A stretch of DNA of 64,000 bases from a bacterium (GTDB lineage: Bacteria > Hydrothermota > UBA3073 > JACQXS01), in the NCBI GenBank assembly GCA_030605695.1, contig JAUWHX010000093.1, positions 6,681-70,680 of the forward strand, in the 5' to 3' direction. The position numbers and the translations under genes were made by a program. Positions 12,142 to 51,075 of the stretch are shown here, in pieces. The notes beneath the pieces were generated by a model. The model worked only from the letters and a program-made list of their open reading frames with translations. It did no database searches and was not told the DNA's origin. Positions within the stretch are counted from its first letter, which is position 1; every line of letters starts with the position of its first letter.

Positions 12142-12160
12142 ATACAGCAAAACTTAATTT

Positions 12161-15232: not shown

Positions 15233-16141
15233 ATGAAAAAGGGAATTAAAATAGTTATTTGTGCACTTATACTAATAATTATTTTTTTCTTTATGGGAAA
15301 ATGTTTTTACAGTAATTGGCAGCAAGTGTCTTTTAAAAATTTAAGATTTAATTGGTTGTTCATTATTATCTCATATTTTTTCTATGCTTGTATTCTTTTG
15401 TTGACTAGTTTTGCTTGGAAACTCGCTTTAGCTTGCGTAGGAGAGAAGATAAAATTTATGCAATCACTTTCTATCACTGCATTTTCTTTTCTGCTAAGAT
15501 ATGTTCCAGGGAAAATATGGGGAATGCTTGGCCAAGTATGGCTCACCAAGAAAGAAGGCGGAATTTCAGAAAAAAAGGGAGGAGTTTGCGTAATATTAAC
15601 AACAGTAATAAGCATATTGAGTGGATTGTTTTTAATCCTTATTATGTTTCCTTTTGTTTCTAAAAATAGATTCTCGTCAAATCTTTACTTTCTGTTTGCG
15701 ATTGTGCCTTTATTCTTTGTAATATTATATCCTCCCATATTTACAAAAGTGATAAATTTTGGATTGAAAATGTTTAAAAAAAAGGGTATAGAATTTGCGA
15801 TAGGATACAATCAAATATTAAAACTCTTATCTTTATACATTCTTTTATGGATTACTCAATGTATTGGAATATATTTTTTAATAGGGTCATTTTATTCAAT
15901 TAAACCATCATTTTTTATTTCTTTATGTGGTATATATCCTGCAGCATGGGTAATTGGATTCTTAAGTTTTATTACACCGGCAGGGCTGGGCGTACGAGAG
16001 GGAATACTGTCTTATCTTTTTAGTTTTTACCTCCCTACAAGTATTGGGATAATGACATCAGTTATTATAAGAATTTGGGGATTAATAGGAGAACTTATCT
16101 TTTTTGCAATTTTCGCAAGAAATATAAAAAGATATATATGA
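15233..16141 (+). CDS. Polytopic membrane protein, lysyl-phosphatidylglycerol-synthase transmembrane-region-like (flippase-like, UPF0104)
   Basis: Eight predicted hydrophobic helices; conserved ...ITPAGLGVREGILSYLF.. motif near the C-terminus. Confidence 0.45.
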   Translation: MKKGIKIVICALILIIIFFFMGKCFYSNWQQVSFKNLRFNWLFIIISYFFYACILLLTSFAWKLALACVGEKIKFMQSLSITAFSFLLRYVPGKIWGMLGQVWLTKKEGGISEKKGGVCVILTTVISILSGLFLILIMFPFVSKNRFSSNLYFLFAIVPLFFVILYPPIFTKVINFGLKMFKKKGIEFAIGYNQILKLLSLYILLWITQCIGIYFLIGSFYSIKPSFFISLCGIYPAAWVIGFLSFITPAGLGVREGILSYLFSFYLPTSIGIMTSVIIRIWGLIGELIFFAIFARNIKRYI

Positions 16142-16290: not shown

Positions 16291-17559
16291 TTGATTTCGT
16301 GTTTCAAGGTTTTAATGAGGAAGCATGCCATGTTAAATTATAATAAACTACATAAGGTTTTGTTTTGTAAAGCGAAGGCATGGTTTATCATTATAGGAAT
16401 AATAGCTATACCTGAGGTTTTGAGAGCTGATTTAGATGTATTTATGGGTTGCAAATGTTGGTTAAATACAGGCACTCCAGGAGTATGGGAGAGGAAAATG
16501 GCATGGGATATTGGTCCTTACCCGGATAGTGTCTATGTCCACTCAAGTTTCTGCGACTTGGATAATGATGGAGATTATGATGCTTATGTTACTAGAGATG
16601 TCTCCCTTATAACCGCATTTGAGAATGTAGGATCTGATACAGCCCCGAATTGGCAAAGGAAACCTTCATGGGATTTCAACCCCTCTGATATGGGTTTAGT
16701 ATTTTGGGCTGATTTTATAGATATAGATGATGATGGTAAATGTGACCTAAGTGTTGCCGAGCATGATACTATTAAGTTTTATAAAAACACAGGGACAAGT
16801 CTTTTTGTATGGACAAGAGAATCTGCATGGGATATATATGTTGACGGGTGCAATCTCGGACATTCTTATGCTGATTTAGATAATGATGGAGATTATGATT
16901 TCATGGCAAGACTTTGGTTTGCACGTAAAATTAAGGCTTTTGAAAATATTGGCTCTATCACTAATCCAGTCTGGCAGGAGAAGCCGGTATGGGCTCCCAA
17001 TCCTGAGCCAGACCTCCTATCATTAGGTGACTTAGATGGAGATACGGATGTAGATATAATAGGGGGAGGAATATCATGGGCAACTTCTTTTGAAAATACA
17101 GGAACTATAACTAACCCTGTATGGACAGAAAGGTCTGGATGGTGCACTCCTGATGCACATAGACCCTTCTACCCAGAATTAATAGATATAGACTCAGATG
17201 GACCATCAGGGGTAGAAGAAAAGCATTTTGCGCCACATCAGAGATTTATTACTATTTATCCGAATCCTTTCACTCAAAAAACCGTTATTCGTGTTCGGTT
17301 TTCGTGTTTAGACCATCACGAACCACCAACACGAATCACGATTTATGATTTAGCAGGCAGATTGGTTAAATCTTTTCCCCATACGGGTCTTGAGACAATT
17401 CACAATTCATCCATAGGATCCGATGGACGATTTGCGATTCACAAAGTAACCTGGGACGGAACCGATAATAATGGAAAGAAAGTAAAGAGTGGCATTTACT
17501 TCTGCAAATTCCAAGCAAACAATTATACAGTAACAAAAAAACTATCTTTAATAAAGTAG
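16291..17559 (+). CDS. FG-GAP/VCBS-repeat T9SS cargo protein
   Basis: Repeated DLDNDGDYD / DIDDDGKCD / DLDGDTDVD calcium-binding-type repeats. C-terminal domain: IYPNPFTQKTVIRVRF..ITIYDLAGRLVKSF...WDGTDNNGKKVKSGIYFCKF..KKLSLIK. Confidence 0.65.
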   Translation: MISCFKVLMRKHAMLNYNKLHKVLFCKAKAWFIIIGIIAIPEVLRADLDVFMGCKCWLNTGTPGVWERKMAWDIGPYPDSVYVHSSFCDLDNDGDYDAYVTRDVSLITAFENVGSDTAPNWQRKPSWDFNPSDMGLVFWADFIDIDDDGKCDLSVAEHDTIKFYKNTGTSLFVWTRESAWDIYVDGCNLGHSYADLDNDGDYDFMARLWFARKIKAFENIGSITNPVWQEKPVWAPNPEPDLLSLGDLDGDTDVDIIGGGISWATSFENTGTITNPVWTERSGWCTPDAHRPFYPELIDIDSDGPSGVEEKHFAPHQRFITIYPNPFTQKTVIRVRFSCLDHHEPPTRITIYDLAGRLVKSFPHTGLETIHNSSIGSDGRFAIHKVTWDGTDNNGKKVKSGIYFCKFQANNYTVTKKLSLIK

Positions 17560-17564
17560 TACAA

Positions 17565-18338
17565 ATGCAGAATTACATTATTGTTGACGAGATTGAAATT
17601 CCTGTTCCCAAATCTTCTGATTTTGGAGAATTTTTTTTCCTCGGTGGTATAAAATCTTACAAATATTTTTCAAACTATGTTGAAGGGAAAAATGTATTGG
17701 ATATTGGATGCGGTTACGGCTACGGCTCTTATTTTATGAGTTGGAAAGCTAAGAGAGTAACGGGGATTGACATCCAAAAAAAGCCAGTAGAGAGAGCTCG
17801 AAATGCTTATCAAAAAGATAATTTAGAATTCTTATTAATGGATGTGTTTAACTTGGAGCAAGAATTTTCAGGTAATTCTTTCGATGTAGTTATTGCCCGG
17901 GAGTTTATAGAACATATTAAAGAACCTTTAGAATTTCTACAAATAGCACATTATTTACTATCAGAAGAAGGAATCCTGATTTTATCAACTCCAAACCGTT
18001 TAGCAAGGTCAGTAGAAGGTAAGCCATGGAATCCTGAACATGTGAGAGAGTTCGATGAAATATCTTTAAGAGAAGTCCTTTTACAAAAATTTAATCGTGT
18101 GAAGATTATCGGGATGTCGGGGTCTGAAAAAGTAATCAAATACAATAAGATTCGTACAGGAGGAGACGTTTCTACTTCATTTAAAAAATTATGGAGATAC
18201 ACACCAGAGTTGTTAAAGAAACTGGTCAGAAAAATGATTAGCGGAAAACTTCCCAAAAATATCACGATTGATGATTTTTACTTCGAAGATAAAGTAATGC
18301 CTCAAAGCTTTTTGTTAGCAGCTTTTTGCAGAAAATGA
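17565..18338 (+). CDS. Class I SAM-dependent methyltransferase
   Basis: Motif I VLDIGCGYGYGSYFM, plus post-I acidic and motif II elements. The stop TGA overlaps the ATG at 18335 (ATGA). Confidence 0.7.
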   Translation: MQNYIIVDEIEIPVPKSSDFGEFFFLGGIKSYKYFSNYVEGKNVLDIGCGYGYGSYFMSWKAKRVTGIDIQKKPVERARNAYQKDNLEFLLMDVFNLEQEFSGNSFDVVIAREFIEHIKEPLEFLQIAHYLLSEEGILILSTPNRLARSVEGKPWNPEHVREFDEISLREVLLQKFNRVKIIGMSGSEKVIKYNKIRTGGDVSTSFKKLWRYTPELLKKLVRKMISGKLPKNITIDDFYFEDKVMPQSFLLAAFCRK

Positions 18339-18364
18339 GAGGGTCAAATAAGAATACAAAAGGT

Positions 18365-18373
18365 AAAAAAAAA
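18365..18373. repeat. Poly(A)9 homopolymer tract between the coupled ATG and the YfhO body
   Basis: Nine consecutive A counted directly (ggtAAAAAAAAAgctg). Confidence 0.9.
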
Positions 18374-18497
18374 GCTGAAAAGCTATTCAAGTCTGTCTCT
18401 AATCTCATTCCCGAAAAATACCATAAATAAAATATTTATAGCTATTCTGTTTATACTTCCCGTAATTTATTTCGCATCCCTGCTTTCCGGCTCTAAA

Positions 18498-20876
18498 ATG
18501 ATGTATGGGTCTGATTGGCTAATTGCCGGATATTCTATAAGAAAATGGATAGGAGATTGCATCAGACAATATGGTAGCGGTCCTATGTGGGACCCATCTG
18601 CATTTGGAGGAATACCATTTGGCAATCCTTATACATTTTACTTTTTGTCTTTTCTGATTTTGCCTGTTCATGTGATTTGGACCTATATGTTTGTATTCGC
18701 TACATTTTTTGCCGGCCTGGGAATATACTTATATTTGAAAGAACTAAATATCTCTTTGTATTCTTCGTTTCTTGGAGCAATTGTTTATATGGGATGCGGT
18801 TCTGTTCTCTCAATGACTTACCCGGGGCACGATGGAAAAACATTAGCAACTGCCTTCTTTCCGTTTATTCTTCTCTTCTTACATAAGGCACTTACAAAAC
18901 ACAAACTTATTTACTTCTTATTTGCCGGAGCTGTAGGAGGACTTGCCGCTGTTAATGCTCATTTCCAACTTATTTACTACGCCGGTGTAATGTGCGTGTT
19001 TTATTTGCTCTATCACCTTATATGGCAACGTAAAGAGAATGGAATAAGAAAAACCATCATACTTATAGGATATTCACTTTGTGCCCTGATCCTTGCCGGT
19101 GGTTTGCTATCAATACACTACTTCCCTATATTCGGAACTATGGGATGGGGAGCAAGAGGTGCAGGTAGGGGATATGAGTTCGCCACCTCCTGGTCCTTGC
19201 CACCCAATGAGCTTTTGGATTTACTAACACCTTACTTCTCGGGATTACAAAATAACTATTGGGGAGAAAACTATTTTAAACTTGATACTCAATACTTAGG
19301 AATATTACCTTTGTTACTTGCTTTGCTTGCAATTGCTTTCAAGAGAAGAGAAAAATATGTCCGATTCTTTATAGGACTTTGTGTAGTTACTGTGATATTT
19401 GCGATTGGTGGACATACTCCACTTTATCGTATTCCATATTGGGTACTTCCAGGCTTAAAAAAACTCAGATGTCCTACAATGATTTTTTATCTCACAAGCT
19501 TTGGCATCGCAGTTCTTTCGGCATTTGGAGTCCAAACACTGACAAACAGAAGCCAGAAGCCAGAAGCCAGAAGCCAGAATATAAGAAATATTAGTATCTT
19601 ATTGGGAATAATATTTGGTATAGTTGTAATATTTGCTGTTATTTGTTCGGTTGGGAAGGAATCTATACTCTCCTCGTTGAAAACACGCTGGAGCCCAATT
19701 TTACTTGGTAAGTACGGTCCTCAACTCACTCAACAAAAATTACAGAACCTTTCTGAAAATTATCCTAATTTTCTTGGCGGATTGGGCAAAGCTATACTTT
19801 TAATAGCCATAAATTCTTTCTTGATTTTACTTTTAGCTATGAAACGACTAAAATTGAGAGTTTGGATTTTAATAGCTATACCAATACTTATATTTGACCA
19901 GTGGAGTATTGAGAAGAAATTTCTAAAAACCGTCTCACATCCCAAGCAATATTATGCTCCTGATGAAATCGTAAGTTTTTTGGGAAACCCGTCCCGAACC
20001 GTGACGGGTCGGGATGACCGAGAACTCTACCGCGTATTCCCACTTAATTATGAGCATTCTCAGGATGGATACCTTTCACTTTATAATATTCAAAGTTTAG
20101 GTGGATATGTTTCAAATCCTGGTGATAGATACCAGAAACTTATTGGCGCCGGTGAAAGTGTTATGTTCACTCCTTTAAATTTAATACGGTATAGGAATAT
20201 GCTTAACATCTTGAATGCCAAATATGTCATCTCTATGTGGGTTCCGGATGACCTATCAAAATATCCACCTAATACTCAACAGGTAATAAAAAGTTTCAAA
20301 GATGGTTTTTTAAGAAAATGGGGAACAAGCTGGGAAGAAGCACATAAAGGCTTTAAACTTGTTTATAGAAGCAATCGTGGGTATGGAATATATGAAAATG
20401 AAACTACTTTACCAAGAGTATGGTTGGTCCATAACTTCAAAGTCTTGTCTCGTGAGGAAGTTCTTGAGGAATTAAAAAACCCTACTTTTCACCCTGATAC
20501 TATAGTGCTTCTTGAGGAAGACCCCGAATTCCAAACCCCGAACCCTGAACCCCGAACCCCGAACCCCGAGAAAGTTGTAATCAATGAGTATTCGCCCAAC
20601 AAAATAATATGCACTGCCACTCTTGAATCGCCAGGTTTTCTAATATTCTCAGATAACTGGCATCCAGATTGGAAAGTTTGGGTTGACAAGAAAAAAGAAA
20701 AAGTTTACATTGCTGATTACACTTTGAGAGCAGTTCAGTTGGATAAAGGAGAGCACAGCGTGGAATTTAAGTATGATTCCTTGCATTTTAAGTTAGGAGC
20801 AATCGTGTTTTTCCTTTCATTCTTATTCTTTCTCGGTACAATTGGGTTCTGGTTTAAATTTTATAGAAGAAGATGA
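18498..20876 (+). CDS. yfhO: YfhO-family polytopic membrane glycosyltransferase; the true 5' end is probably at 18335, see findings
   Basis: Many transmembrane helices and a large C-terminal extracytoplasmic domain, as in YfhO-type glycopolymer glycosyltransferases. The frame is open back to the upstream stop and encodes a further TM helix (KIFIAILFILPVIYFASLL) with no ATG/GTG/TTG in that stretch. Confidence 0.65.
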   Translation: MMYGSDWLIAGYSIRKWIGDCIRQYGSGPMWDPSAFGGIPFGNPYTFYFLSFLILPVHVIWTYMFVFATFFAGLGIYLYLKELNISLYSSFLGAIVYMGCGSVLSMTYPGHDGKTLATAFFPFILLFLHKALTKHKLIYFLFAGAVGGLAAVNAHFQLIYYAGVMCVFYLLYHLIWQRKENGIRKTIILIGYSLCALILAGGLLSIHYFPIFGTMGWGARGAGRGYEFATSWSLPPNELLDLLTPYFSGLQNNYWGENYFKLDTQYLGILPLLLALLAIAFKRREKYVRFFIGLCVVTVIFAIGGHTPLYRIPYWVLPGLKKLRCPTMIFYLTSFGIAVLSAFGVQTLTNRSQKPEARSQNIRNISILLGIIFGIVVIFAVICSVGKESILSSLKTRWSPILLGKYGPQLTQQKLQNLSENYPNFLGGLGKAILLIAINSFLILLLAMKRLKLRVWILIAIPILIFDQWSIEKKFLKTVSHPKQYYAPDEIVSFLGNPSRTVTGRDDRELYRVFPLNYEHSQDGYLSLYNIQSLGGYVSNPGDRYQKLIGAGESVMFTPLNLIRYRNMLNILNAKYVISMWVPDDLSKYPPNTQQVIKSFKDGFLRKWGTSWEEAHKGFKLVYRSNRGYGIYENETTLPRVWLVHNFKVLSREEVLEELKNPTFHPDTIVLLEEDPEFQTPNPEPRTPNPEKVVINEYSPNKIICTATLESPGFLIFSDNWHPDWKVWVDKKKEKVYIADYTLRAVQLDKGEHSVEFKYDSLHFKLGAIVFFLSFLFFLGTIGFWFKFYRRR
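19547..19579. repeat. (CAGAAGC)4 heptanucleotide tract, in-frame in yfhO
   Basis: Direct reading gives cagaagc x4 + cagaa. It encodes RSQKPEARSQKPEARSQN in a predicted loop. Confidence 0.85.
20522..20570. repeat. (CCCCGAA)-type heptanucleotide tract of 7 units, in-frame in yfhO
   Basis: Units ccccgaa ttccaaa ccccgaa ccctgaa ccccgaa ccccgaa ccccgag, encoding DPEFQTPNPEPRTPNPEK. Confidence 0.85.
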
Positions 20877-21589
20877 AAGCTCTTGTTATCATTCCTACTT
20901 ACAATGAGATAGAGAATATAGAGAGGATAATTGAGGCTATATTCTCCAATGCGTCAAGCGTGGATATACTTGTAATAGATGATAACTCACTTGATGGAAC
21001 TGGTAAATATGTAGAAGAATTATCAAAGAAGAACCCGAAAGTGCATATTATTCACCGTGAGAGAAAACTCGGATTAGGAAGTGCATATAGAGTCGGATTT
21101 AAATATGCACTCAAAGAGAAATATGATTATGCTTTTGAAATGGATGCCGACTTTTCACATAACCCTGAGGATATACCAAGATTTCTTGAAAAAGTAAAAA
21201 CTTGCGACCTCGTAATAGGCTCAAGATATTTAAATCAAATATCTATTGTAAACTGGCCCCTTTCAAGACTCCTGCTTTCCTATTTTGCAAATTTTTATGC
21301 CAGAATAATAACCGGAACTCCTATCCGTGATTTGACATCAGGATTTAAGTGCTACAGCAGAAAAGTCCTTGAAGGAATTCCTCTTGACAGAATTTGCTCG
21401 GATGGATATAGTTTCCAAATTGAGACTGTTTTCTGGGCATATCACAAAAAATTTGATGTTCAGGAAATGTCCATCGTATTCACAGACCGAATAAAAGGAA
21501 CCTCAAAAATGTCAAAAGCTATTGTCTGTGAAGCATTCTGGCTTGTTTGGAAACTCAGAGCCGTTAAACTACTTCATAAATATGGCTGA
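20873..21589 (+). CDS. Family 2 glycosyltransferase, polyprenyl-phosphate sugar synthase type (DPM1/CsbB/GtrB-like)
   Basis: N-terminus VIIPTYNEIENIERII, DxD (VIDDNSLDG), and acceptor-loop motifs. Overlaps the yfhO stop by 4 nt. Confidence 0.75.
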   Translation: MKALVIIPTYNEIENIERIIEAIFSNASSVDILVIDDNSLDGTGKYVEELSKKNPKVHIIHRERKLGLGSAYRVGFKYALKEKYDYAFEMDADFSHNPEDIPRFLEKVKTCDLVIGSRYLNQISIVNWPLSRLLLSYFANFYARIITGTPIRDLTSGFKCYSRKVLEGIPLDRICSDGYSFQIETVFWAYHKKFDVQEMSIVFTDRIKGTSKMSKAIVCEAFWLVWKLRAVKLLHKYG

Positions 21590-22265
21590 TGTAATAATAG
21601 TAGCTGCAGGTGAAGGCAAGAGAATGCAAGACAAGATTCCTAAGCCATATATTAAGTTGAAAGGAAAACCAATTATAGCTCTGACTTTAAAAGTATTTAG
21701 TGAAATTCAAGAGATAGAAAATATAATAATTGTTACTCTTCCCGATTGGATTAAATATTGTGAGTCCGAAGTTATAGAGAAATTTGGATTTAAAAAGGTT
21801 AAGGCAATTATAAAAGGTGGTGCTAAAAGGCAAGATTCAGTGAAAATTGGACTTGAGGCTTTATCCTCTACCCTAAACCCTATACCCGATACCCTTTTAA
21901 TTCATGATGCTGTAAGGCCATTTATTACAGAAGATTTTATAACTCATTTAATCAAGATGTGTGATAAATACGGAGCTGTGGTTCCTGGCATCCCCGCAAC
22001 TGATACGATTAAAGAAATAGATAACGGTTTTGTGCATCGCACTCTCCAAAGAAATAATGTCTATGAGATTCAAACTCCTCAGGTTTTCAAGCATGAGATT
22101 ATTAAGGAAGCATATGAAAAGGCTTATTCTTGTGGTTTTTATGGCACAGACGATGCTTCACTTGTTGAAAGATTGGGAACCCAAGTAAAGGTCGTGCCGG
22201 GACTCCAAAGAAACATAAAAATTACTACCAGGGAAGACCTCTTATATGCAGAAAATTTACTTTAA
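21582..22265 (+). CDS. ispD: 2-C-methyl-D-erythritol 4-phosphate cytidylyltransferase
   Basis: MADVIIVAAGEGKRM... N-terminus and conserved IspD motifs. Start moved to the ATG at 21582, which overlaps the upstream stop. Confidence 0.8.
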   Translation: MADVIIVAAGEGKRMQDKIPKPYIKLKGKPIIALTLKVFSEIQEIENIIIVTLPDWIKYCESEVIEKFGFKKVKAIIKGGAKRQDSVKIGLEALSSTLNPIPDTLLIHDAVRPFITEDFITHLIKMCDKYGAVVPGIPATDTIKEIDNGFVHRTLQRNNVYEIQTPQVFKHEIIKEAYEKAYSCGFYGTDDASLVERLGTQVKVVPGLQRNIKITTREDLLYAENLL

Positions 22266-22724
22266 ATGAAAGTAGGTATCGGATACGATTTTCATCGCCT
22301 TGTAAAAGGCAGGAAGTTAGTTCTCGGGGGCATTGAAATCCTTCATTCTAAAGGTCTTTTAGCACATTCTGATGGCGATGTCTTGTTACATGCTATTGGC
22401 GATGCTATTCTCGGTGCTTCAGGGAAAAGAGATATTGGTTATTACTTCCCAGACACAAACCCTAAATACGAAGGAATCTCCAGCATTGAACTAATTAAAG
22501 AAATAATACGCATTACTAAAGCTAATATCATAAATATAGACTCTGTAATAATATGTGAAGAACCAAAGCTTTCACCTTACATCCAAAATATGCGGGAAAA
22601 AGTCGCCTTTATTCTTAATATTGACTCAAATTCAATCTCTATAAAAGCTAAAACTCAGGAAGGCACAGGTCTTATTGGTAGAGGAGAAGGGATAGCAGTT
22701 TATGTAGTTGTGCTCATTACTTAA
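22266..22724 (+). CDS. ispF: 2-C-methyl-D-erythritol 2,4-cyclodiphosphate synthase
   Basis: IGYDFHRL...GHSDGDVLLHAIGDAILGA... family motifs. The ATG immediately follows the ispD stop. Confidence 0.85.
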   Translation: MKVGIGYDFHRLVKGRKLVLGGIEILHSKGLLAHSDGDVLLHAIGDAILGASGKRDIGYYFPDTNPKYEGISSIELIKEIIRITKANIINIDSVIICEEPKLSPYIQNMREKVAFILNIDSNSISIKAKTQEGTGLIGRGEGIAVYVVVLIT

Positions 22725-24012
22725 TTTTTCCCGCCCACGCTGTTAATTTATTCATCTTTACCTCTCGTTGCTTTCCTGTACGCATATTTTTGATAGTTGC
22801 TTTTTGAACTCGCACTTCATCAGGACCTACTACAATAACATAAGGTATTTTTTTCTTATCTGCATATTTGAACTGTTTTGACAGCTTAACAAAGTCAGAA
22901 TAAATCTCGGTTGCAATGCCTGAATCTCGGAGTTCCTTTGCAATTACTATAGCTGGAGAAGAGTGAGACTCATCAAATTGTGCTACAAGTATGCGAGTAG
23001 ATGGCTTATCCTTTGGCATCAAATTAAGCTCCTTAAGTGCAATCATCATCCGCTCAAATCCAATTGTAATTCCCACTGCAGGTATAGATTTCTCAAGAAA
23101 TGTCCCGATAAGGTCATCAAATCTCCCTCCTCCTGCAAGACTTCCAATCTTTGGACGAGACACTACAACCTCAAATATTGGACCAGTATAATAATTAAGT
23201 CCCCTTGCAAGCCAGGGGTCAAATGAGAAGAACTTCCGATTGATGTTAAAATCCTTTAAATAATCAAAAAGATTTTTGAGTTCTTGTATTCCTTCTTTCT
23301 CCGGTATTACCCGCTCTAATTCTTTCAAGGTTTTGCAATTTTCTAATAGGTCAATCAACTTTTCGCGAGCATCCTGAGGGACTCCATTAAATTCAAGTTT
23401 CTCGGCTACTCCATCCACTCCAATTCGCTCTTGTTTATCCATAGCTCTATAGACGGCGAACTCAAGTTCTGGAGAAATCCCGCTATATTCGCACAAGCTT
23501 TGCAAAATTTTGCGGTTGTTAATCTTTATATTAAATTCCTTGAATCCAAGAGTCCTAAAAACCTCGTATGTAATGCTCAAAATCTCAGCCTCTGCAAGCA
23601 TACTCTGGGCTCCAACTATATCTACATCGCATTGATAAAATTCTCTAAACCTTCCGTATTGTGGTGCATCTCCTCGCCATACAGGTTGAATCTGGTATCT
23701 TTTGAATGGCATAGGAATCTCAGGATGCATTGCAATCACTCTTGATAGAGGAACAGTAAAGTCAAATCTAAGCCCTGCATCTCTTCCTTTACGGTCCTTA
23801 AAGCGATAGATAAGTTTCTCTTCATCTCCATATCTATTCTTGCCAGATAACACATCCCAGTATTCAATAGCAGGAGTTTCTATTGGCAGGAAGCCGTACC
23901 GCTCGAAAATCTCTTTTATAATACTAATAATTTTTTCTCGCCTTTTCATCTCTTCTGGCATCCTATCGTGCATCCCTTTTACAGTTTGTGGTTCTATCTT
24001 CTCTTTGTCCAT
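22717..24012 (-). CDS. hisS: Histidine--tRNA ligase
   Basis: Class II aaRS motifs (..VKGMHDRMPEEM.., ...RLDPWLARGLNYYTGPIFEV..GGGRFDDL) and a C-terminal anticodon-binding domain. Confidence 0.85.
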   Translation of the reverse strand: MDKEKIEPQTVKGMHDRMPEEMKRREKIISIIKEIFERYGFLPIETPAIEYWDVLSGKNRYGDEEKLIYRFKDRKGRDAGLRFDFTVPLSRVIAMHPEIPMPFKRYQIQPVWRGDAPQYGRFREFYQCDVDIVGAQSMLAEAEILSITYEVFRTLGFKEFNIKINNRKILQSLCEYSGISPELEFAVYRAMDKQERIGVDGVAEKLEFNGVPQDAREKLIDLLENCKTLKELERVIPEKEGIQELKNLFDYLKDFNINRKFFSFDPWLARGLNYYTGPIFEVVVSRPKIGSLAGGGRFDDLIGTFLEKSIPAVGITIGFERMMIALKELNLMPKDKPSTRILVAQFDESHSSPAIVIAKELRDSGIATEIYSDFVKLSKQFKYADKKKIPYVIVVGPDEVRVQKATIKNMRTGKQREVKMNKLTAWAGKIK

Positions 24013-24103
24013 AAGCTTAATATCTCCTAAATATCGTAGGGATTTGATTCATCAAATCTTTTCATAGAATCTGCGATTTGACACGATAAATCGTGTCCCT
24101 ACT

Positions 24104-24442
24104 TCAACAAGTAAGGTGTAAAGCAGCTATCACCTTATACATTTGATTTAACTCATTATATTGACGAGAAACCTCAGTTGTAGAGCCCACTATGACTTTA
24201 ATCCCATTAGATTCGAGTTTTTTGATTAGCTCTTCCTGAACTTTCATCAATCCATAAGCCCCAGTTCCTATCACTAAGCATTCAGGGATTTCATTTAAAA
24301 CCTCCAGCAAATCACTTTCTTGCAGGAGATGTCCTTGGGATCTCCACCAATTTGAATCAACTTTATTAGGGTATATAATGACATCTTGCGTATATGTAAC
24401 TCCATCAATCACAATTTTCCCAAATCTATAATCCGAAATCAT
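24104..24442 (-). CDS. Mth938-like (DUF498) domain protein
   Basis: Start moved to MISDYRFGKIVIDGVTYTQDVIIYP..., which resembles the Mth938 family. The longer annotated ORF would overlap mreD. Confidence 0.5.
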   Translation of the reverse strand: MISDYRFGKIVIDGVTYTQDVIIYPNKVDSNWWRSQGHLLQESDLLEVLNEIPECLVIGTGAYGLMKVQEELIKKLESNGIKVIVGSTTEVSRQYNELNQMYKVIAALHLTC

Positions 24443-24447
24443 TTTTA

Positions 24448-24903
24448 CTAAGTTCTGCAAACATTTAACTTTCTCAAGGCAGGAAACATAATTAAACCAA
24501 TAGCTGTAGTATATAAAGCTCCGAAGAATATATATCTCCCAAAAAAGCGATGAGAGAGCTCCTGTACGCTTGCAAAAATCACAACATCGTGTGCTAACGA
24601 GCTGACAAAAAGTAAGATGAGCCATAAAAGAGGAGTTTCTTTGTACACCCTACCACTCAATCTACCAACTCCATATCCAATCACAGTTCCCACAAGTGCA
24701 TTATACCCAAGAGACGAACTGTATAAATCTATAAATATCCCTGTTGCAAATCCAAGCCACATACCCGCTTTTTCATGAAATAAAGCAGTATAGACTACAA
24801 CCACCAGAACAATATCTGGTGTAATTTGTGCAATAGCTACACCTCGAAGCACACTTATTTGAATCACACAAAAAATTCCTGCCAGAATCCATAATTTCAC
24901 CAT
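24448..24903 (-). CDS. mreD: Rod shape-determining protein MreD
   Basis: Small polytopic membrane protein immediately downstream of mreC. Confidence 0.6.
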   Translation of the reverse strand: MVKLWILAGIFCVIQISVLRGVAIAQITPDIVLVVVVYTALFHEKAGMWLGFATGIFIDLYSSSLGYNALVGTVIGYGVGRLSGRVYKETPLLWLILLFVSSLAHDVVIFASVQELSHRFFGRYIFFGALYTTAIGLIMFPALRKLNVCRT

Positions 24904-24965
24904 TAACTACTTTATCTGCTCTATCCGTTCAATCCGCTTACTCAATTTACTTCCGGAATTTCCAT

Positions 24966-25931
24966 TTATTGAGGCTGAAGTCGAATAGTAGGTTCCTTTA
25001 CTTTAAATTCAATAGGAAATTCCCCTCTCTCTTCCTCTTTCTCTTTTAATACTGACGGCAATCTCTTCTTTGGTTTTTCCAAAGGAGACTGAACAATTTC
25101 TTCTTCCTCTATTTTCTGATAAATTTCCCATCCCTGAGTTTTATAAACTGTACTTTTCTCTAATCTTTCAGGTTTTTTCTTCACAATAAATACATATTCC
25201 GTCTCTCCTAACTTGCAGGTAGGTTCTAAAGCTACCTCATAGAAAAGTTTTGTCTTGTCCACATTTATTTCACGGACCTTACCAACAGCTACTCCCTTAG
25301 GAAATATACTCCCTAACCCACTCGTCACTATAGAATCTCCTATTTGTATATCAGAATTAACTCGCACTTGGCCTAAAACACATCCCTTGCCACCTTCCCA
25401 TCGTACAATACCTTGAATTCCATTTCGGAGGTTCATACATGCTACCCTGAAATTAAAATCAGATATAGTCTGCACCATGGCATTCTCCTTTGTAACCTCA
25501 GTCACCTTTCCATACACCCCATCACAAGTTATGACCGGAAAATCTTTCCTCACTTCATCTGCTAACCCTTTATCAATTAAACAAGTACCGGAAATCGGAT
25601 TAGGGTCTCTACTCACTATTCGTGATGCAATTAGTTCATACTCTGTCCGAGCTTTAAATTCAAGCAGGTCAAAAAGTTTTTCATTCTCGTATTGTGAACT
25701 TCTAATAATCTGATTATTTAATGCAAGCTCCGAAACTTTTGCTCTAAGAACTTTATTTTCGTGCCTTATCTTAAATTCATTAAAAATAAAGGAAACCCAA
25801 CCATTAAATGGAGAGAATATACTTCCCAATCGGATTTGTGTCTTTTTACCAAATTCGGTACTTCCAATACCAATTAAGATTATACATAAGACAATAAGCC
25901 CAAAAAACCATCGGTCTGTCACTTTCCACAT
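24966..25931 (-). CDS. mreC: Rod shape-determining protein MreC
   Basis: N-terminal transmembrane helix, coiled-coil, beta-rich periplasmic domain. The ATG abuts the mreB stop. Confidence 0.75.
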   Translation of the reverse strand: MWKVTDRWFFGLIVLCIILIGIGSTEFGKKTQIRLGSIFSPFNGWVSFIFNEFKIRHENKVLRAKVSELALNNQIIRSSQYENEKLFDLLEFKARTEYELIASRIVSRDPNPISGTCLIDKGLADEVRKDFPVITCDGVYGKVTEVTKENAMVQTISDFNFRVACMNLRNGIQGIVRWEGGKGCVLGQVRVNSDIQIGDSIVTSGLGSIFPKGVAVGKVREINVDKTKLFYEVALEPTCKLGETEYVFIVKKKPERLEKSTVYKTQGWEIYQKIEEEEIVQSPLEKPKKRLPSVLKEKEEERGEFPIEFKVKEPTIRLQPQ

Positions 25932-29446: not shown

Positions 29447-30463
29447 CTATCTCATTAAAATTATTTTCTTTGTTGCCTTGAAATTACTTGCTTCCACTCT
29501 CACAAAGTAGATACCTTTACTAAGCTTCTCAAGATTTATCTCAACATCCTGCTTCGTTGTTAAAACATGCTTTACTAACTTGCCTGATAGGTCATAAATC
29601 TTGATACTTGCTCCCTTGCTCGCTTGTTGAGGCAAAGCCGAAATCCCGATTTGTCGGGGATAGCTCGATAGCTTGATAACTGCCTTCCCAAACGATGGGT
29701 TCGGATATATCTCTAAACTAATGCCTATTGCCTTATGCCTATTGCCTGTCTCTTCCTCTACTCCTGTCTCAGAAACCCTTATAAGATAGACATCTTTCTT
29801 GCCAGCACCAAAAGAATATGTCCCTCCTGCAATTATAAAGCCACCACTTGCATACTCCTGAACAGAATAGCCACAATCCCAGGCAGTTCCTCCATAAGTT
29901 CTTGTCCACAGAGTATCACCATTTGCATTTGTCCTTATAAGATAGACATCATCAGAGCCAGCACCAAAAGACTTTGTATATCCTGCGATTATAAAGCCCC
30001 CGCCTGCACACTCCTGAACAGAAGAGCCACCATCAGAGTTAGTTCCGCCATAAGTTTTAGTCCACAGAGTATCTCCATCTGCGTTCGTTCTTATAAGATA
30101 GACATCATCAGAGCCAGCACCAAAAGACTCTGTATATCCTGCGATTATAAAACCCCTATCCGTACACTCTTGAACAGAATTGCCATCATCCCAGTAAGTT
30201 CCGCCATAAGTTTTAGTCCATAGAGTATCACCATTTGGCTCTATCCTTATAAGATAGACATCACTTCTGCTAGCACCAAAAGAAAATGTACATCCTGCAA
30301 TTATAAAGCCACTACCTGCACACTTCTGAACAGAACAGCCATGATCGTACTCGGTTCCGCCATAAGTTCTTGTCCACAGGGTATCAGGACCATCGGCAAT
30401 TGCAGGTGCGGACACAATAAATTGTGTCCCTACAAAAGCCCATACTCTCAAAAACTTACGCAT
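29447..30463 (-). CDS. T9SS cargo with about-45-aa tandem repeats ([11 protein letters not shown]...FIIAGYT.SFGAG.DDVYLIRT, x5)
   Basis: Signal peptide, five near-identical repeats, and an intact C-terminal sorting domain. Compared with its paralog at 63517, the sorting domain carries an extra YPRQIGISALPQQ encoded by the palindrome tcccgatttgtcggga (29649-29664). Confidence 0.7.
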   Translation of the reverse strand: MRKFLRVWAFVGTQFIVSAPAIADGPDTLWTRTYGGTEYDHGCSVQKCAGSGFIIAGCTFSFGASRSDVYLIRIEPNGDTLWTKTYGGTYWDDGNSVQECTDRGFIIAGYTESFGAGSDDVYLIRTNADGDTLWTKTYGGTNSDGGSSVQECAGGGFIIAGYTKSFGAGSDDVYLIRTNANGDTLWTRTYGGTAWDCGYSVQEYASGGFIIAGGTYSFGAGKKDVYLIRVSETGVEEETGNRHKAIGISLEIYPNPSFGKAVIKLSSYPRQIGISALPQQASKGASIKIYDLSGKLVKHVLTTKQDVEINLEKLSKGIYFVRVEASNFKATKKIILMR

Positions 30464-30636: not shown

Positions 30637-32112
30637 TTATCTCATTAAAACTATTTTCTTTGTCGCCTTGAAATCACCTACATCCACTCTCACAAAGTAA
30701 ATACCTTTAGTAAGTTCCTCAAGATTTATTTCAACATCGTGATTCATTGTTAAAATAGTCTTTACTAACTTGCCTGATATATCGTAAATCGTTAATCGCA
30801 AATCGTTAATCGTGTAATCGTCCCGATTTTCGTTTAACGAATAACGAATAACGATTTTTTTGCTACATGGATTCGGAAAAACTCTTAACTCTAAACTCTT
30901 AACTTTTAACTCTTCACTCTCCTCCACATTTGTATTCTCACATTTATGACGCTTGTAATATATCTCCGAGTTGCTAGCCCCATGCCGCCAATCCGTCCAA
31001 GCTATATGAACATCATAATCATAATCGCAATTCCAACATGCTACAGAAACGCGTTCAGACTTGCCGACAGAATTGGTTAACATCTCATCGGTTCCCCAAG
31101 TCTCACCATCATTGACTGACCGATTGTAATATATCTCATAGTCGCTATCCCGCTCATCTACCCAAACTACATGAACTGCTGAATCACAAACTGCTATAGA
31201 AGGATCCCCTGAGTAAGCAGAGTTAGTAGTTAATCTCCTATTATCTATCCCCCAAGTCTCTCCATTATCAACTGACCGATTGTAATATATTTCATAGTTG
31301 CTATCACGCCAATCATACCAAACTATATGGACTATTGAATCACAAACTGCTATAGAAGAACACCCTGAGTAAGCAGAGTTATCGGTTAGTCTCTTATTAT
31401 CTATCCCCCAAGTCTCTCCATTATCAACTGACCGATTGTAATATATCTCATAGTTGCCAGCACGCTCATCTATCCAAACTATATGGACTATTGAATCACA
31501 AACTGCTACCGAAGGATACCCTGCGGGAGCAGGGTCATTAGTTAGGCTCTTATCTATCCCCCAAGTTTCTCCATTATCAACTGACCGATTGTAATATATA
31601 TCAGCGTCGCCATCACGAAAATCATACCAAACTATATGAACTATTGAATCACAAACTGCTACCGAAGGACAAGATGAGTCAGCAGGGTCATCAGTTATCC
31701 TCTCATCTATCCCCCAAGTCCCACCATTATCAACTGACCGATTGTAATATATCTCCGTGTTGCCATCACGGTTATCATACCAAACTATATGAACCATCGA
31801 ATCACAAACTGCTACCGAAGGAAAATGAGAATCCCCTGTAGTTAGCCGTGTATCCGGGTCAAAGCTACTCCCAGAATTGATAGACCTTATATAATAAAGC
31901 TCGCCTGGATTATCACCCAATCTGTGCTCCCAAAAAATATGCACCATAGTATCCCGTACTGCTATTGCCCAAGCATTATTGTAGCCATCATAGTCAACAT
32001 GGCTTGGATAAACAGTTAATCTTTTATCTGGATTCTCCCACTGCCCATACAAATCCACAGGATTCTGCGAACTGCAAGCTCCCAACACCATCAAAAATCC
32101 CCATTTCTTCAT
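30637..32112 (-). CDS. BNR/Asp-box repeat T9SS cargo protein
   Basis: Repeated SVDNGETWG / SVNDGETWG Asp-box motifs (x6); C-terminal domain ..LRVFPNPCSKKIVIRYSL...[14 protein letters not shown]...GIYFVRVDVGDFKATKKIVLMR. Confidence 0.75.
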   Translation of the reverse strand: MKKWGFLMVLGACSSQNPVDLYGQWENPDKRLTVYPSHVDYDGYNNAWAIAVRDTMVHIFWEHRLGDNPGELYYIRSINSGSSFDPDTRLTTGDSHFPSVAVCDSMVHIVWYDNRDGNTEIYYNRSVDNGGTWGIDERITDDPADSSCPSVAVCDSIVHIVWYDFRDGDADIYYNRSVDNGETWGIDKSLTNDPAPAGYPSVAVCDSIVHIVWIDERAGNYEIYYNRSVDNGETWGIDNKRLTDNSAYSGCSSIAVCDSIVHIVWYDWRDSNYEIYYNRSVDNGETWGIDNRRLTTNSAYSGDPSIAVCDSAVHVVWVDERDSDYEIYYNRSVNDGETWGTDEMLTNSVGKSERVSVACWNCDYDYDVHIAWTDWRHGASNSEIYYKRHKCENTNVEESEELKVKSLELRVFPNPCSKKIVIRYSLNENRDDYTINDLRLTIYDISGKLVKTILTMNHDVEINLEELTKGIYFVRVDVGDFKATKKIVLMR

Positions 32113-40926: not shown

Positions 40927-41481
40927 TCAAATTTTGAACTTTTTTACTCCTTGCTCAAATAAGTCTCCACCCCAGCAGTCGTTTGCTACTGTGCAAGGAA
41001 AATCCTCAACCAAAAGCTCCCTTATCGCTTCTGCTCCTAAATCCTCGTATGCAATTATCTTGGCTGACTTAACAGATTTTGCTATTAAAGCCGCTACCCC
41101 ACCGGTTGCTGCAAGATAAATCCCTTTATATTCTTTTAGTGCCTCACGAACTTCCTTGCTACGATTGCCTTTGCCAATCGTAGCTTTAAGCCCATTCTTA
41201 TGCATAAATGGAGTAAAGGGGTCCATACGATACGAAGTCGTTGGTCCTGCACTTCCGATTACATAACCTGGTTTTGCAGGTGCTGGTCCTACATAATAAA
41301 TCACTGCCCCTTTAAGATTTATAGGAAGTGGCTTGCCAGTTTTTAATAACTCATATAATCTCTTATGAGCCGCATCCCTGCCAGTGTAAATTATGCCAGA
41401 TAATAAAACCTTATCCCCAATCTTAAGTTTTTCAATATCCTCATCACTCAAAGGCGTCTTGAGCTTTATCTCATTTCCCAT
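40927..41481 (-). CDS. fumB: Fumarate hydratase class I, beta subunit (C-terminal domain)
   Basis: Start moved to MGNEIKLKTPLSDEDIEKLKIGDKVLLSGIIYTGRDAAHKRL.... The extended annotated ORF is an N-terminal read-through into the intergenic hairpin. Confidence 0.75.
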   Translation of the reverse strand: MGNEIKLKTPLSDEDIEKLKIGDKVLLSGIIYTGRDAAHKRLYELLKTGKPLPINLKGAVIYYVGPAPAKPGYVIGSAGPTTSYRMDPFTPFMHKNGLKATIGKGNRSKEVREALKEYKGIYLAATGGVAALIAKSVKSAKIIAYEDLGAEAIRELLVEDFPCTVANDCWGGDLFEQGVKKFKI

Positions 41482-41501
41482 AATCCCTCCCTTACAAAAA
41501 A

Positions 41502-41578
41502 TCACCGCAGAGTCGCAGAGTTCGCAAAGAAAAATTGTAATTATAAAAACCTCTGCGTTCTTTGCGTCTTTGCGGTGA
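41502..41578. repeat. MITE/REP-like palindromic element, copy 1 (TIR t[ct]accgc ... gcggt[ga]a)
   Basis: Long imperfect hairpin: arms rich in cgcagag/cgcaaag heptads, A/T loop. Highly similar to the copy at 44153-44224. Confidence 0.7.
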
Positions 41579-41623
41579 AAATCTTTTAACTCATGTAATC
41601 TATAATTCCCATTTATTTCTTGC

Positions 41624-42220
41624 TTAAAAATGAAAACATAACCAGGTGCTAAGAGACCCTTGCAGAGGAAGATAAAAATATACACTATCATAGATATTAG
41701 AATAATCTTCCTCATCAGAATATTTCTTTTCCAAGTAGGTCCGTGAAACACTGACTAACGAAGTTTTAAACCTTAAACTCAGTTGCTTACCCATAAGACT
41801 AACGAAATATTCAATCCCAGGGTCAATACTTACACTGTAAGTTTGAGACAAACTTTCTTGCCAATGGGTTCCATCGTGGTAGTCATAATCCACACCAAAA
41901 TAAGGTTCTAAAGCAATAAAAGGCGAAAACGAACTACTTGCACGAAAGTATTTATAAAGCCCAATACCTGCGGACCATTGCCAGTCCTTACTATCATTAT
42001 TACTTCTTTCCTCCTTACTAAAATAGCCACTACCATCTATCCCTATCGCAACTGTTTTCCACGGCCTCCATGAGACAGAATATTGGGTGAAACTGAACAA
42101 TCCGAATAAAGGCCAATCTTTAGGCATTCCCAATCCCACTGTCCATTTGCCCTGTAAGTTCACTAAACTCGTGGACTCACCAGGCACTCCAATCATCAAA
42201 ACACTCAACAAAATCCACAT
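41624..42220 (-). CDS. Small outer-membrane beta-barrel-like protein, inserted between the two fumarate hydratase subunit genes
   Basis: Signal-like N-terminus, alternating hydrophobic beta-strand pattern, aromatic-rich, terminal F. Confidence 0.4.
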   Translation of the reverse strand: MWILLSVLMIGVPGESTSLVNLQGKWTVGLGMPKDWPLFGLFSFTQYSVSWRPWKTVAIGIDGSGYFSKEERSNNDSKDWQWSAGIGLYKYFRASSSFSPFIALEPYFGVDYDYHDGTHWQESLSQTYSVSIDPGIEYFVSLMGKQLSLRFKTSLVSVSRTYLEKKYSDEEDYSNIYDSVYFYLPLQGSLSTWLCFHF

Positions 42221-46823: not shown

Positions 46824-47963
46824 ATGATGAGTATATTTTTACTTTTGTTTGGAGTTTTGTGGAATGAGAAAAAGCAAGTAGATACTTTATTGCCGGAACT
46901 TGCCTGGCCCTATTATATATTTGAATCCACTGAGATTGAGGGATATAAAGTAATGATGTTTGAGCCCTCTATGCCCTGTTCTGTGCGTCAATTTATGTGT
47001 GGAGTAGGTTCTATGGCAGATGATGCAAGCAAGGAATGTGAATTATTTGTGTGGAGTGATGCTGGCGGGGAACCTGGATTGTTATTGTTTAATGAAAGTA
47101 TTACTATTAGTGCAACTGATTCTGGCAAGGTTTACTTTTACTGGCATAAATTGAGTTCGCCGGTATCGGTAGTGGGACCGTTTTGGATTGGAGTTAAGGA
47201 ACAAGGGTGTTTATTTCCCACTATAGTTTTTGATGAACTTCAAAAAACATCGGGCAAGTCTATTCATAGTAAAGATGGGACAGATTGGCAAACTTTTGAT
47301 GGGGATTATTTTTATGGTGTAGTGATTGATTATGGAGGAGAAGCTGAGATTTATGTAGAGCCGGATTCACTTGAGTTACTTATGAAAGAAGGTCAAGTTG
47401 ATTCTGAAGTAATATGGGTTTATAATAAGTCGCCTTCCTGTGATTTATCAGTAGATAGTGTTTGCTGGAGCAAGAATTGGATTTTATCTGTGAATCCCGA
47501 AGCTTTTTTATTAGCACCCGGCAGTTCAAAGCGTGTGGATGTAGTTGTTGAAGGTTCAGGAGTTGGGGAATACAATGATACTCTCTGGATTTTTTCAAAT
47601 GACCCCGATAAGAGTATATATCCTGTGCCAGTGCTGCTTTCGGTTGTCGGAGTAGAGGAGGGTTTAGGGTTCAGGGTTCAGGGTTTAGAGTTGAGAGTTT
47701 TTCCGAATCCAGCTTTGGGAGTAGCAAGTATCAGATTTCAGATGCCAGATGCCAGATGCCAGAACTCCGGCAGGAGACATCTAACATCTAACATCTCATT
47801 AAAAATTTATGATGTTGCAGGGAAATTAGTGAATGTACTTTTTGAAGGAGAAAAGGAGTGGGGGGTTCATACTTTATCGGTTAAGCTCACAGGTGGTGTT
47901 TATTTTGTGAAACTCAAAGCAAATGGTCAGGAAATAATCAAAAAACTTATAATAATAAGATGA
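46824..47963 (+). CDS. T9SS cargo protein of unknown function
   Basis: Intact C-terminal domain (..LRVFPNPALGVASIRFQ...ISLKIYDVAGKLVNVLF...GGVYFVKLKANGQEIIKKLIIIR). The linker before it is encoded by GGTTYAG and CAGATGC heptamer tracts (47661-47766). Confidence 0.65.
   Translation: MMSIFLLLFGVLWNEKKQVDTLLPELAWPYYIFESTEIEGYKVMMFEPSMPCSVRQFMCGVGSMADDASKECELFVWSDAGGEPGLLLFNESITISATDSGKVYFYWHKLSSPVSVVGPFWIGVKEQGCLFPTIVFDELQKTSGKSIHSKDGTDWQTFDGDYFYGVVIDYGGEAEIYVEPDSLELLMKEGQVDSEVIWVYNKSPSCDLSVDSVCWSKNWILSVNPEAFLLAPGSSKRVDVVVEGSGVGEYNDTLWIFSNDPDKSIYPVPVLLSVVGVEEGLGFRVQGLELRVFPNPALGVASIRFQMPDARCQNSGRRHLTSNISLKIYDVAGKLVNVLFEGEKEWGVHTLSVKLTGGVYFVKLKANGQEIIKKLIIIR

Positions 47964-48957: not shown

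Positions 48958-51075
<2,118 letters not shown>

Follow-up and report, generated by a model that had tools for sequence, protein, structure and literature searches.

We analysed a 64 000-nucleotide stretch of contig JAUWHX010000093.1 (positions 6681–70 680 of the forward strand; hereafter the window, whose numbering is used throughout) from an uncultivated bacterium of the WOR-3 group. We found that the gene of a YfhO-type membrane glycosyltransferase is split from what is almost certainly its ancestral start codon by a run of nine adenines (A9), the length of which sets the reading frame. The run lengths known so far, A9 in the window, A10 in a second assembly of the same strain (Logan contig L031) and A10 in a sister species (contig L001), all leave the gene out of frame. 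With moderate confidence we favour the view that the run is a real hypermutable tract, which acts as a switch and/or a leaky dimmer, and that the gene is functional. The coordinates of all features are collected in Table 1.

The start of yfhO and its first transmembrane helix

The upstream gene, coding for an S-adenosylmethionine (SAM)-dependent methyltransferase, ends in a TGA codon (18336–18338) that overlaps an ATG, and the junction thus reads ATGA (18335–18338). As annotated, yfhO starts at ATG 18498, and the open reading frame (ORF) read from there lacks the N-terminal transmembrane helix (TM1). Upstream of the annotated ATG, the YfhO frame is open as far back as 18339 and codes for ..NKIFIAILFILPVIYFASLLSGSK / ..NTINKIFIAILFILPVIYFASLLSGSK; no ATG, GTG or TTG occurs in this frame between 18339 and 18498. 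In the window, methyltransferase and YfhO lie in one reading frame with a single TGA between them. A fusion of both proteins by read-through of this TGA was considered and rejected, as the remnant methyltransferase and yfhO of L001 lie in different frames. Up to ..NLIPE, the frame that is read from ATG 18335 in the A9 allele is the linker frame of L001 and of the consensus of the relatives.

When relatives were scanned for with each species represented by one genome, 25 loci were obtained. Two of these are contigs of the metagenome-assembled genome (MAG) of the sister species (L004, which is identical to L001, and L026), while the remaining 23 represent other species-level relatives (MAGs of WOR-3, Stahlbacteria and TA06). 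In all 23 the ORF is intact and leads from a start codon through a Lys-rich N-terminus and TM1 to the sequence KMMYGSDW. The start codon is ATG throughout except for a GTG in L017, and the longest A run in the N-terminal region of these relatives comprises seven nucleotides. Close homologues of the fused N-terminus from WOR-3 and Stahlbacteria bins show the same order of a Met, a Lys-rich stretch, a hydrophobic helix and an invariant KMMYGSDW. This motif, which carries an acidic residue and follows TM1 in the first outward loop, is found in the extended frame of the window and in all 25 loci. The loop that follows TM1 has to point outward in GT-C enzymes, and the Asp of the motif may have a catalytic role.

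We compared the window with L001, which shares ∼92% nucleotide identity with it. In the stretch of 26 codons that leads up to the annotated ATG (18420–18497), there are eight synonymous changes and one conservative non-synonymous change, giving a ratio of non-synonymous to synonymous rates (omega) of 0.03; the probability of this 8:1 pattern under neutrality is ∼1e-4 (binomial on site counts). For the body of yfhO, omega values of 0.15–0.17 versus the sister species were obtained. Furthermore, in an AlphaFold 2 (AF2) model of the translation from 18366, TM1 forms a helix at residues 17–35 with predicted local distance difference test (pLDDT) values of 77–96, and the annotated Met is residue 45. 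Since the codons of TM1 are conserved under purifying selection, the helix is evidently translated in both lineages, and the intact relatives together with the 8:1 synonymous bias indicate that the annotated internal start is almost certainly wrong and that ATG 18335 is almost certainly the ancestral start of yfhO. With five outgroups we counted 34 branch-specific amino-acid changes in the window branch and 27 in the sister branch, all of them conservative. A relaxed selection on the window branch, suggested by 44 versus 19 changes with one outgroup, was dismissed because the asymmetry vanished with the five.

No Shine-Dalgarno sequence was found before ATG 18335, but the ATGA stop-start overlap is present there; ATG 18498 has neither a Shine-Dalgarno sequence nor such an overlap, and about half of the genes here carry a Shine-Dalgarno sequence. 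The deposited proteins support other starts: the public protein of 791 aa (P0025) begins at the second Met (18501) and its sister-species counterpart (P0002) at the first Met of MMYGSDW, so that both omit the conserved TM1. Initiation at ATG 18498 or 18501, resulting in a protein without TM1, or at the near-cognate ATA codons 18423 or 18432, where ribosomes might re-initiate after the stop codon of the short ORF (18428–18430), would agree with this annotation and with the finding that the short ORFs of the window A9 allele and of L001 end within CCATAAATAAAATA, directly before the ATA codons. However, 18498 and 18501 are ruled out as functional starts by the purifying selection that acts on the codons of TM1, and 18498 also lacks a Shine-Dalgarno sequence. 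ATA starts are very inefficient and would lose the Lys-rich N-terminus found in every relative. We therefore regard a different start as most improbable. A further near-cognate candidate, CTG 18375 behind the Shine-Dalgarno-like AAAGG, was discarded, since it is CTA in L001 and hence not conserved.

Length of the poly(A) run and the reading frame

We simulated different lengths of the run in the window sequence. A8 and A11 yield a single continuous ORF, MRGSNKNTKGKKKLKSYSSLSLISFPKNTINKIF..., whereas the frame is broken with A7, A9, A10 and A12; with A10 the window would code for MRGSNKNTKGKKKS, followed by a stop. The junction peptides of the fused frame are GKKKLK / KLKSYSSLSLISFPK. A full ORF is also restored when A9 is kept and the second short run downstream is shortened from A5 to A4 (18414–18418), in which case the linker reads NLIPENTINK. 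In order to reach the body, a frameshift of −1 or +2 is needed with A9 and of +1 or −2 with A10. The short zero-frame products comprise 31, 14 and 27 residues across the three alleles and differ in sequence as well.

The preliminary description of this DNA had reported the ATGA overlap, the A9 run, the stop in the ATG frame, the open but start-less YfhO frame (18339–18498) and an extra transmembrane helix before the annotated ATG. The sequence bears out all of these points, and the helix is further supported by the relatives, the omega of 0.03 and the AF2 model. The fusion of the frames by A8 was reproduced in the simulation, which added A11 as a second in-frame length; this had been overlooked, as had the common frame of methyltransferase and YfhO and the change from A5 to A4 at 18414–18418 as an equally simple repair. 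Of the proposed phase variation by a homopolymer, one part stands, as it is the run that parts start and body and its length varies (A9, A10, A10), while the in-frame allele it calls for was not found in the assemblies and collections described below.

The length difference within the strain stems from two Logan contigs, L030 and L031, assembled from run SRR14876850. L031 corresponds to window positions 17468–19576 (2110 nt) with no mismatches and one gap, which falls on the poly(A) run; L030 corresponds to 19550–25134 (5.6 kb) with two mismatches and no gaps. The run is thus the sole indel over 7.7 kb of evidently the same strain. In the sister species the ATGA junction and MRVSNKNTKGKKK are kept in front of the A10 run. 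Relative to L001, the window carries an 8-nt insertion (18374–18381) and one additional A in the short run (18414–18418). As these total 9 nt, the frameshift is compensated and the same in-frame lengths, A8 and A11, apply in both contexts. The linker between the insertion and A5 is read in a different frame in the window and in L001; it is Lys-rich and poorly constrained. The ..NLIPENTINK of L001 fits the (S/T)E(S/T)T(I/L)NK of the relatives, and the A5 of the window is thus the derived state; as far as this A5, the ATG frame of the A9 allele represents the ancestral reading of the linker.

All other homopolymers in the window are shorter than the A9 run. We found one A9/T9 match versus 8.2 ± 4.2 expected from dinucleotide-preserving shuffles, i.e. 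long runs are depleted. A run of nine A is therefore not improbable by composition, but its effect and its behaviour are non-random. Eight further Lys-Lys-Lys sequences are present in genes of the window, and none of them is encoded as AAA AAA AAA. Two overlapping ORF pairs (24104–24903 and 40927–42220) were inspected as further frameshift candidates and turned out to be distinct genes.

A sequencing or assembly artefact would provide a simple explanation: the true run could be A8 or A11 and in frame, with A9 and A10 resulting from short-read stutter. The two assemblies of one strain differ over 2.1 kb only at the poly(A) run, and homopolymers are a known weak spot. However, the run would have to be miscalled in each of three assemblies, which cover two species and at least two data sets, and its true length would never have been returned. 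With A9–A11, consensus calling as a rule arrives at the majority length. Also, the A8/T8 and A7/T7 runs within the 7.7 kb compared and throughout the window (A8 at 8551, 15776 and 35127; T8 at 17631, 33303 and 59825) show neither a discrepancy nor a broken ORF. Among the homopolymers of at least 7 nt in the window, A9 is the only one that interrupts an ORF, and the assembly is thus not generally indel-prone. We consider an artefact clearly unlikely; that the run polymorphism is biological rather than technical appears plausible from these comparisons.

A recent decay of the 5′ end has to be weighed as well. In this case, the window strain and L001 would have been inactivated independently by ordinary indels in A-rich sequence, the low omega would reflect a functional past and no switching would occur. 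Several length changes between start and TM1 in the window (the 8-nt insertion, A4 to A5 and A9/A10) are in line with such a course, as is the adjacent methyltransferase gene, which is already largely deleted in L001, where a 45-codon in-frame remnant (636–767) keeps the ATGA junction; no ON allele was seen in the assemblies and the protein collection. However, independent hits at one run in two species, with two length states, point to an unusually mutable site rather than to random damage, and the +8 and +1 changes preserve the frame rule. Furthermore, the gene body of 2.4 kb contains no stop codons or further frameshifts, the amino-acid changes of the window branch are conservative and similar in number to those of the sister branch, and the downstream glycosyltransferase gene is intact with an omega of 0.10. 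On this evidence, decay seems doubtful to us.

Expression across the run and comparison with known systems

In the mechanism that we propose, yfhO would begin at ATG 18335 and be translationally coupled to the methyltransferase stop. From this ATG, the N-terminus would consist of a Lys-rich cytoplasmic segment and TM1, followed by the annotated body. Three consecutive Lys codons (positions 11–13) and a neighbouring A would have merged into a run of at least nine A that changes its length in the DNA. As A8 or A11 alone join start and body and A9 and A10 do not, full-length YfhO would be made by cells whose run slipped into frame during replication (phase variation) or, alternatively, by a minority of slipping transcripts or ribosomes (leaky expression). 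The A10 allele could be rescued by the common +1 insertion of RNA polymerase or by a −1 ribosomal shift on A_AAA_AAA. A9 would need −1 or +2 and be rescued less readily, and we would expect A10 to be leakier than A9. The outcome would be a low or heterogeneous surface glycosylation by a module of a GT2 glycosyltransferase, a flippase-like protein and YfhO. Slippage of this kind may yield functional protein, and the switching may be adaptive. Bacterial RNA polymerase has been described to slip efficiently at nine A or T (PMC5009743); the errors at such runs are mostly insertions of one base, which increase exponentially as the run gets longer (PMC5574713), and the tssM1 gene of Citrobacter rodentium is rescued by transcriptional frameshifting at A11 (PMC4256274).

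A related possibility is an obligatory programmed recoding. Here, the out-of-frame arrangement would be the normal state, YfhO would be produced via RNA-polymerase realignment or ribosomal frameshifting at a low and tunable level, and the A9/A10 changes would be tolerated noise. The gene is out of frame in all three tract-bearing assemblies from two species, although purifying selection acts on it and on TM1, and at least nine A constitute a proven slippage site (PMC5009743, PMC4256274). However, the shift that is required differs between the alleles, −1/+2 for A9 versus +1/−2 for A10, the short zero-frame products differ in length, and neither a downstream structure nor an Rfam match accompanies the run; moreover, there are three observations. 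We regard this explanation as improbable.

Several points weigh against a hypermutable tract that controls a functional gene. Neither the three assemblies nor the protein collection nor look-ups of the exact products (792 aa and the 791-aa P0025) yielded an in-frame allele (A8 or A11), and a DNA pattern scan of metagenome contigs for AAGAATACAAAAGGTAAAAAAAA returned two unrelated chance matches only. There are three observations, two of them from one strain, and in this assembly-level comparison the difference between A9 and A10 could partly reflect the behaviour of assembler or sequencing at a long homopolymer. The break in the window can be assigned equally well to the A5 at 18414–18418, which has little slippage potential and fits simple mutational decay. 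Compared with the poly(G/C) tracts known from classic contingency loci, a poly(A) of 9–10 nt mutates less readily. A stimulatory RNA structure downstream of the run was not found, the z-scores of the folds (−0.2 to −1.4) being like those of shuffles, and Rfam gave no match near the run below an E-value of 0.1. Lacking a downstream structure or RNA motif, any recoding would be unstimulated and of low efficiency. Deletions by RNA polymerase within runs are rare (PMC5574713), and ribosome sliding is weak at A9 and A10 and robust only from A11 (PMC4363877); the A9 allele may thus be nearly silent.

Homopolymeric contingency loci and slippage-rescued frameshifted genes are both well known, and the yfhO locus works like them. 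As in the contingency loci of Campylobacter jejuni, Helicobacter pylori, Neisseria (pgl/lgt) and Haemophilus influenzae (PMC3025981, PMC2651432, PMC5953494), a glycosyltransferase gene carries a mononucleotide run in its 5′ coding part that sets the frame, and the length of the run differs between very close genomes, as judged from the assemblies compared. In contrast to these, the tract is a poly(A) of 9–10 nt and not a poly(G/C) or tetranucleotide repeat, and it occurs in an uncultivated WOR-3-group bacterium from environmental metagenome bins and not in a cultured host-adapted pathogen. Natural contingency loci occur with both ON and OFF lengths, whereas here OFF lengths of 9, 10 and 10 only are seen in a very small sample. 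The second class comprises tssM1 of C. rodentium (A11, PMC4256274), dnaX of Thermus thermophilus with a 9-residue A/T run and poly(A) frameshifts of Buchnera (PMC5009743, PMC5574713). With these the locus shares a run of at least nine A at the frame junction of a conserved, selected gene, where insertions by RNA polymerase could restore the frame, most readily for A10. In those genes both products or a fixed ratio are in use and the out-of-frame geometry does not change, whereas the shift and the short products vary by allele in yfhO. The membership of the locus is therefore incomplete in the phase-variable class with regard to ON alleles and switching, and in programmed recoding with regard to the allele-dependent shift and the lack of a stimulator.

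The glycosylation module and heptanucleotide repeats

The assignment of the protein as a YfhO-type glycosyltransferase was corroborated by a match to Pfam PF09586 (YfhO; 64.5 bits at a cut-off of 28.5, E-value 9e-18). The AF2 model (pLDDT 79.6, predicted template modelling score 0.83) shows a multi-helix GT-C membrane fold, and its significant Foldseek matches in the PDB are all GT-C enzymes (PglB, STT3, AftA, EmbB and PMT). The downstream GT2 gene starts within the stop of yfhO (ATGA, 20873–20876), and the coupling claimed for this pair in the preliminary description is thus correct. GT2 was recognized there as CsbB/GtrB-like; it is indeed a polyprenyl-phosphate sugar synthase, but its closest match is the archaeal (Pyrococcus) Dol-P-Man synthase 5mlz (E-value 2.8e-30), with ArnC and GtrB more distant, and it has no membrane anchor of the CsbB/GtrB type. 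GT2 and YfhO are clustered as described for the two-step module, and a flippase-like gene is conserved nearby as well. GT2 follows yfhO also in L003 and L026, and the trio of flippase-like gene, GT2 and yfhO recurs in L002 and L003. The gene directly upstream of yfhO varies: it is the methyltransferase in the window, a GT4 glycosyltransferase in L003 and the flippase-like gene in L002. No terminator was found between the genes.

The gene content supports the prediction that GT2, the flippase-like protein and YfhO form a lipid-carrier-dependent extracytoplasmic glycosylation system of three components. This resembles the glycosylation of teichoic acids by CsbB/GtrB, GtcA and YfhO in Bacillus and Listeria (PMC5836110, PMC7389260, PMC8035078), in which a cytoplasmic GT2 enzyme loads polyprenyl phosphate with a sugar, flipping is carried out by a small membrane protein and the GT-C enzyme YfhO transfers the sugar outside the membrane; in both cases the genes are clustered and coupled, the roles in our case being predicted from the genes. 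Differences are the DPM1/Ppm1-like GT2 without anchor and the candidate flippase, which is of the LPG_synthase_TM type and not a GtcA. The host lineage has sorting domains of the type IX secretion system (T9SS) and is presumably diderm; lipoteichoic acid as acceptor cannot be assumed, and any glycan acceptor proposed for the module would be tentative. Between the flippase-like gene and the methyltransferase, the window contains an FG-GAP repeat protein with a C-terminal T9SS sorting domain (16291–17559), and FG-GAP proteins flank the module in L002 and L003, too.

Table 1. Features of the yfhO locus in the window
Feature	Position	Strand	Remarks
Flippase-like membrane protein (LPG_synthase_TM / TIGR00374)	15233..16141	+	Probable third component of the module
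SAM-dependent methyltransferase gene	17565..18338	+	Ends in ATGA overlap with the ancestral yfhO start; same frame as yfhO body
yfhO ancestral start codon (almost certain)	18335..18337	+	Relatives have Met and Lys-rich segment at the equivalent position; MR(G/V)SNKNTKGKKK kept in L001
Out-of-frame 31-codon ORF of the A9 allele	18335..18430	+	MRGSNKNTKGKKKAEKLFKSVSNLIPEKYHK*; stop at 18428–18430
Poly(A) run, A9	18365..18373	+	A10 in same-strain Logan contig L031 and in sister species L001
8-nt lineage-specific insertion GCTGAAAA	18374..18381	+	From alignment with L001
Second short run, A5	18414..18418	+	A4 in L001; A5 to A4 alone, with A9, restores the full ORF (..NLIPENTINKIF...)
YfhO first transmembrane helix (TM1)	18414..18470	+	Wholly upstream of annotated ATG; helix at residues 17–35 of AF2 model
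Annotated yfhO body, GT-C glycosyltransferase	18498..20876	+	792-aa ORF from ATG 18498
Perfect array CAGAAGC, 4.7 copies	19547..19579	+	Variable yfhO loop
Array ACCCCGA, 7 copies, 80% matches	20521..20569	+	Variable yfhO linker
GT2 polyprenyl-phosphate sugar synthase, DPM1/Ppm1-like, no membrane anchor	20873..21589	+	238 aa; ATG overlaps yfhO stop

Two heptanucleotide arrays lie within yfhO itself. Both are located in loops that vary among all homologues; distant relatives carry no arrays, and the sister species (contig L026) has arrays at the matching sites (235–266 and 1208–1238) with the units AAAACTC and GAGTTCA versus CAGAAGC and ACCCCGA in the window. L031 ends and L030 starts inside the CAGAAGC array (19550–19576). 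An array of 33 nt alone should not break an assembly graph with the k-mer size of Logan (k = 31), and it is possible that the contig break reflects copy-number heterogeneity in the reads.

Such arrays are found across the window: with a Tandem Repeats Finder (TRF) score of at least 50, we counted 13 in 64 kb (starting at 12160, 19547, 20521, 28628, 30781, 30880, 36178, 36666, 47739, 50766, 50855, 51995 and 52152), with ∼4–7 copies and 30–50 nt each. When at least three perfect copies were demanded, seven arrays of period 7 were obtained whereas each of the other periods in the range 4–12 gave 0–1. Nearly all heptamer arrays are inside long ORFs, where a change by one unit would shift the frame. 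They are often situated at or in the C-terminal T9SS sorting domains of secreted proteins (46824–47963, 48958–51075, 51077–52297 and, on the minus strand, 30637–32112), among them LVIVD and BNR propellers and a papain-family protease; slippage would detach the sorting signal. The arrays may represent further slippage-prone sites. The literature contains general remarks on an over-representation of heptamers in some bacteria (PMC4692102); we found none on heptamer repeats in this lineage. Apart from these, tandem repeats of 156 nt with 3.4 to 4.7 copies are present in three minus-strand ORFs (29777–30386, 31094–31822 and 57334–57861); one ORF with this repeat (30637–32112, minus strand) matches BNR-repeat propeller families and bears a T9SS sorting domain.

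A more far-reaching scenario connects both kinds of repeats. The out-of-frame state of yfhO would be maintained and YfhO produced only via slippage, with a glycosylation level that is set by the fidelity of transcription and translation and tuned by the out-of-frame length; together with the heptamer arrays, this would point to a genome-wide, repeat-based diversification of the surface. We consider this scenario rather unlikely.

For the annotation, our results mean that the functional protein probably differs from the deposited one, as TM1 is dropped in the window strain as well as in the sister species. Most work on contingency loci concerns host-adapted pathogens, and yfhO provides a candidate slippage-prone tract that controls a surface-glycosylation gene in an uncultivated bacterium of the WOR-3 group. 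Read sets exist (e.g. SRR14876850), and the heterogeneity of the tract length is directly measurable in them; if the reads show a uniform in-frame length, the finding shrinks to an assembly error and a correction of the annotation. If, on the other hand, the heptamer arrays are length-variable too, many envelope proteins may vary likewise, which would bear on the pressure by phages and predators in communities of sediment and groundwater.

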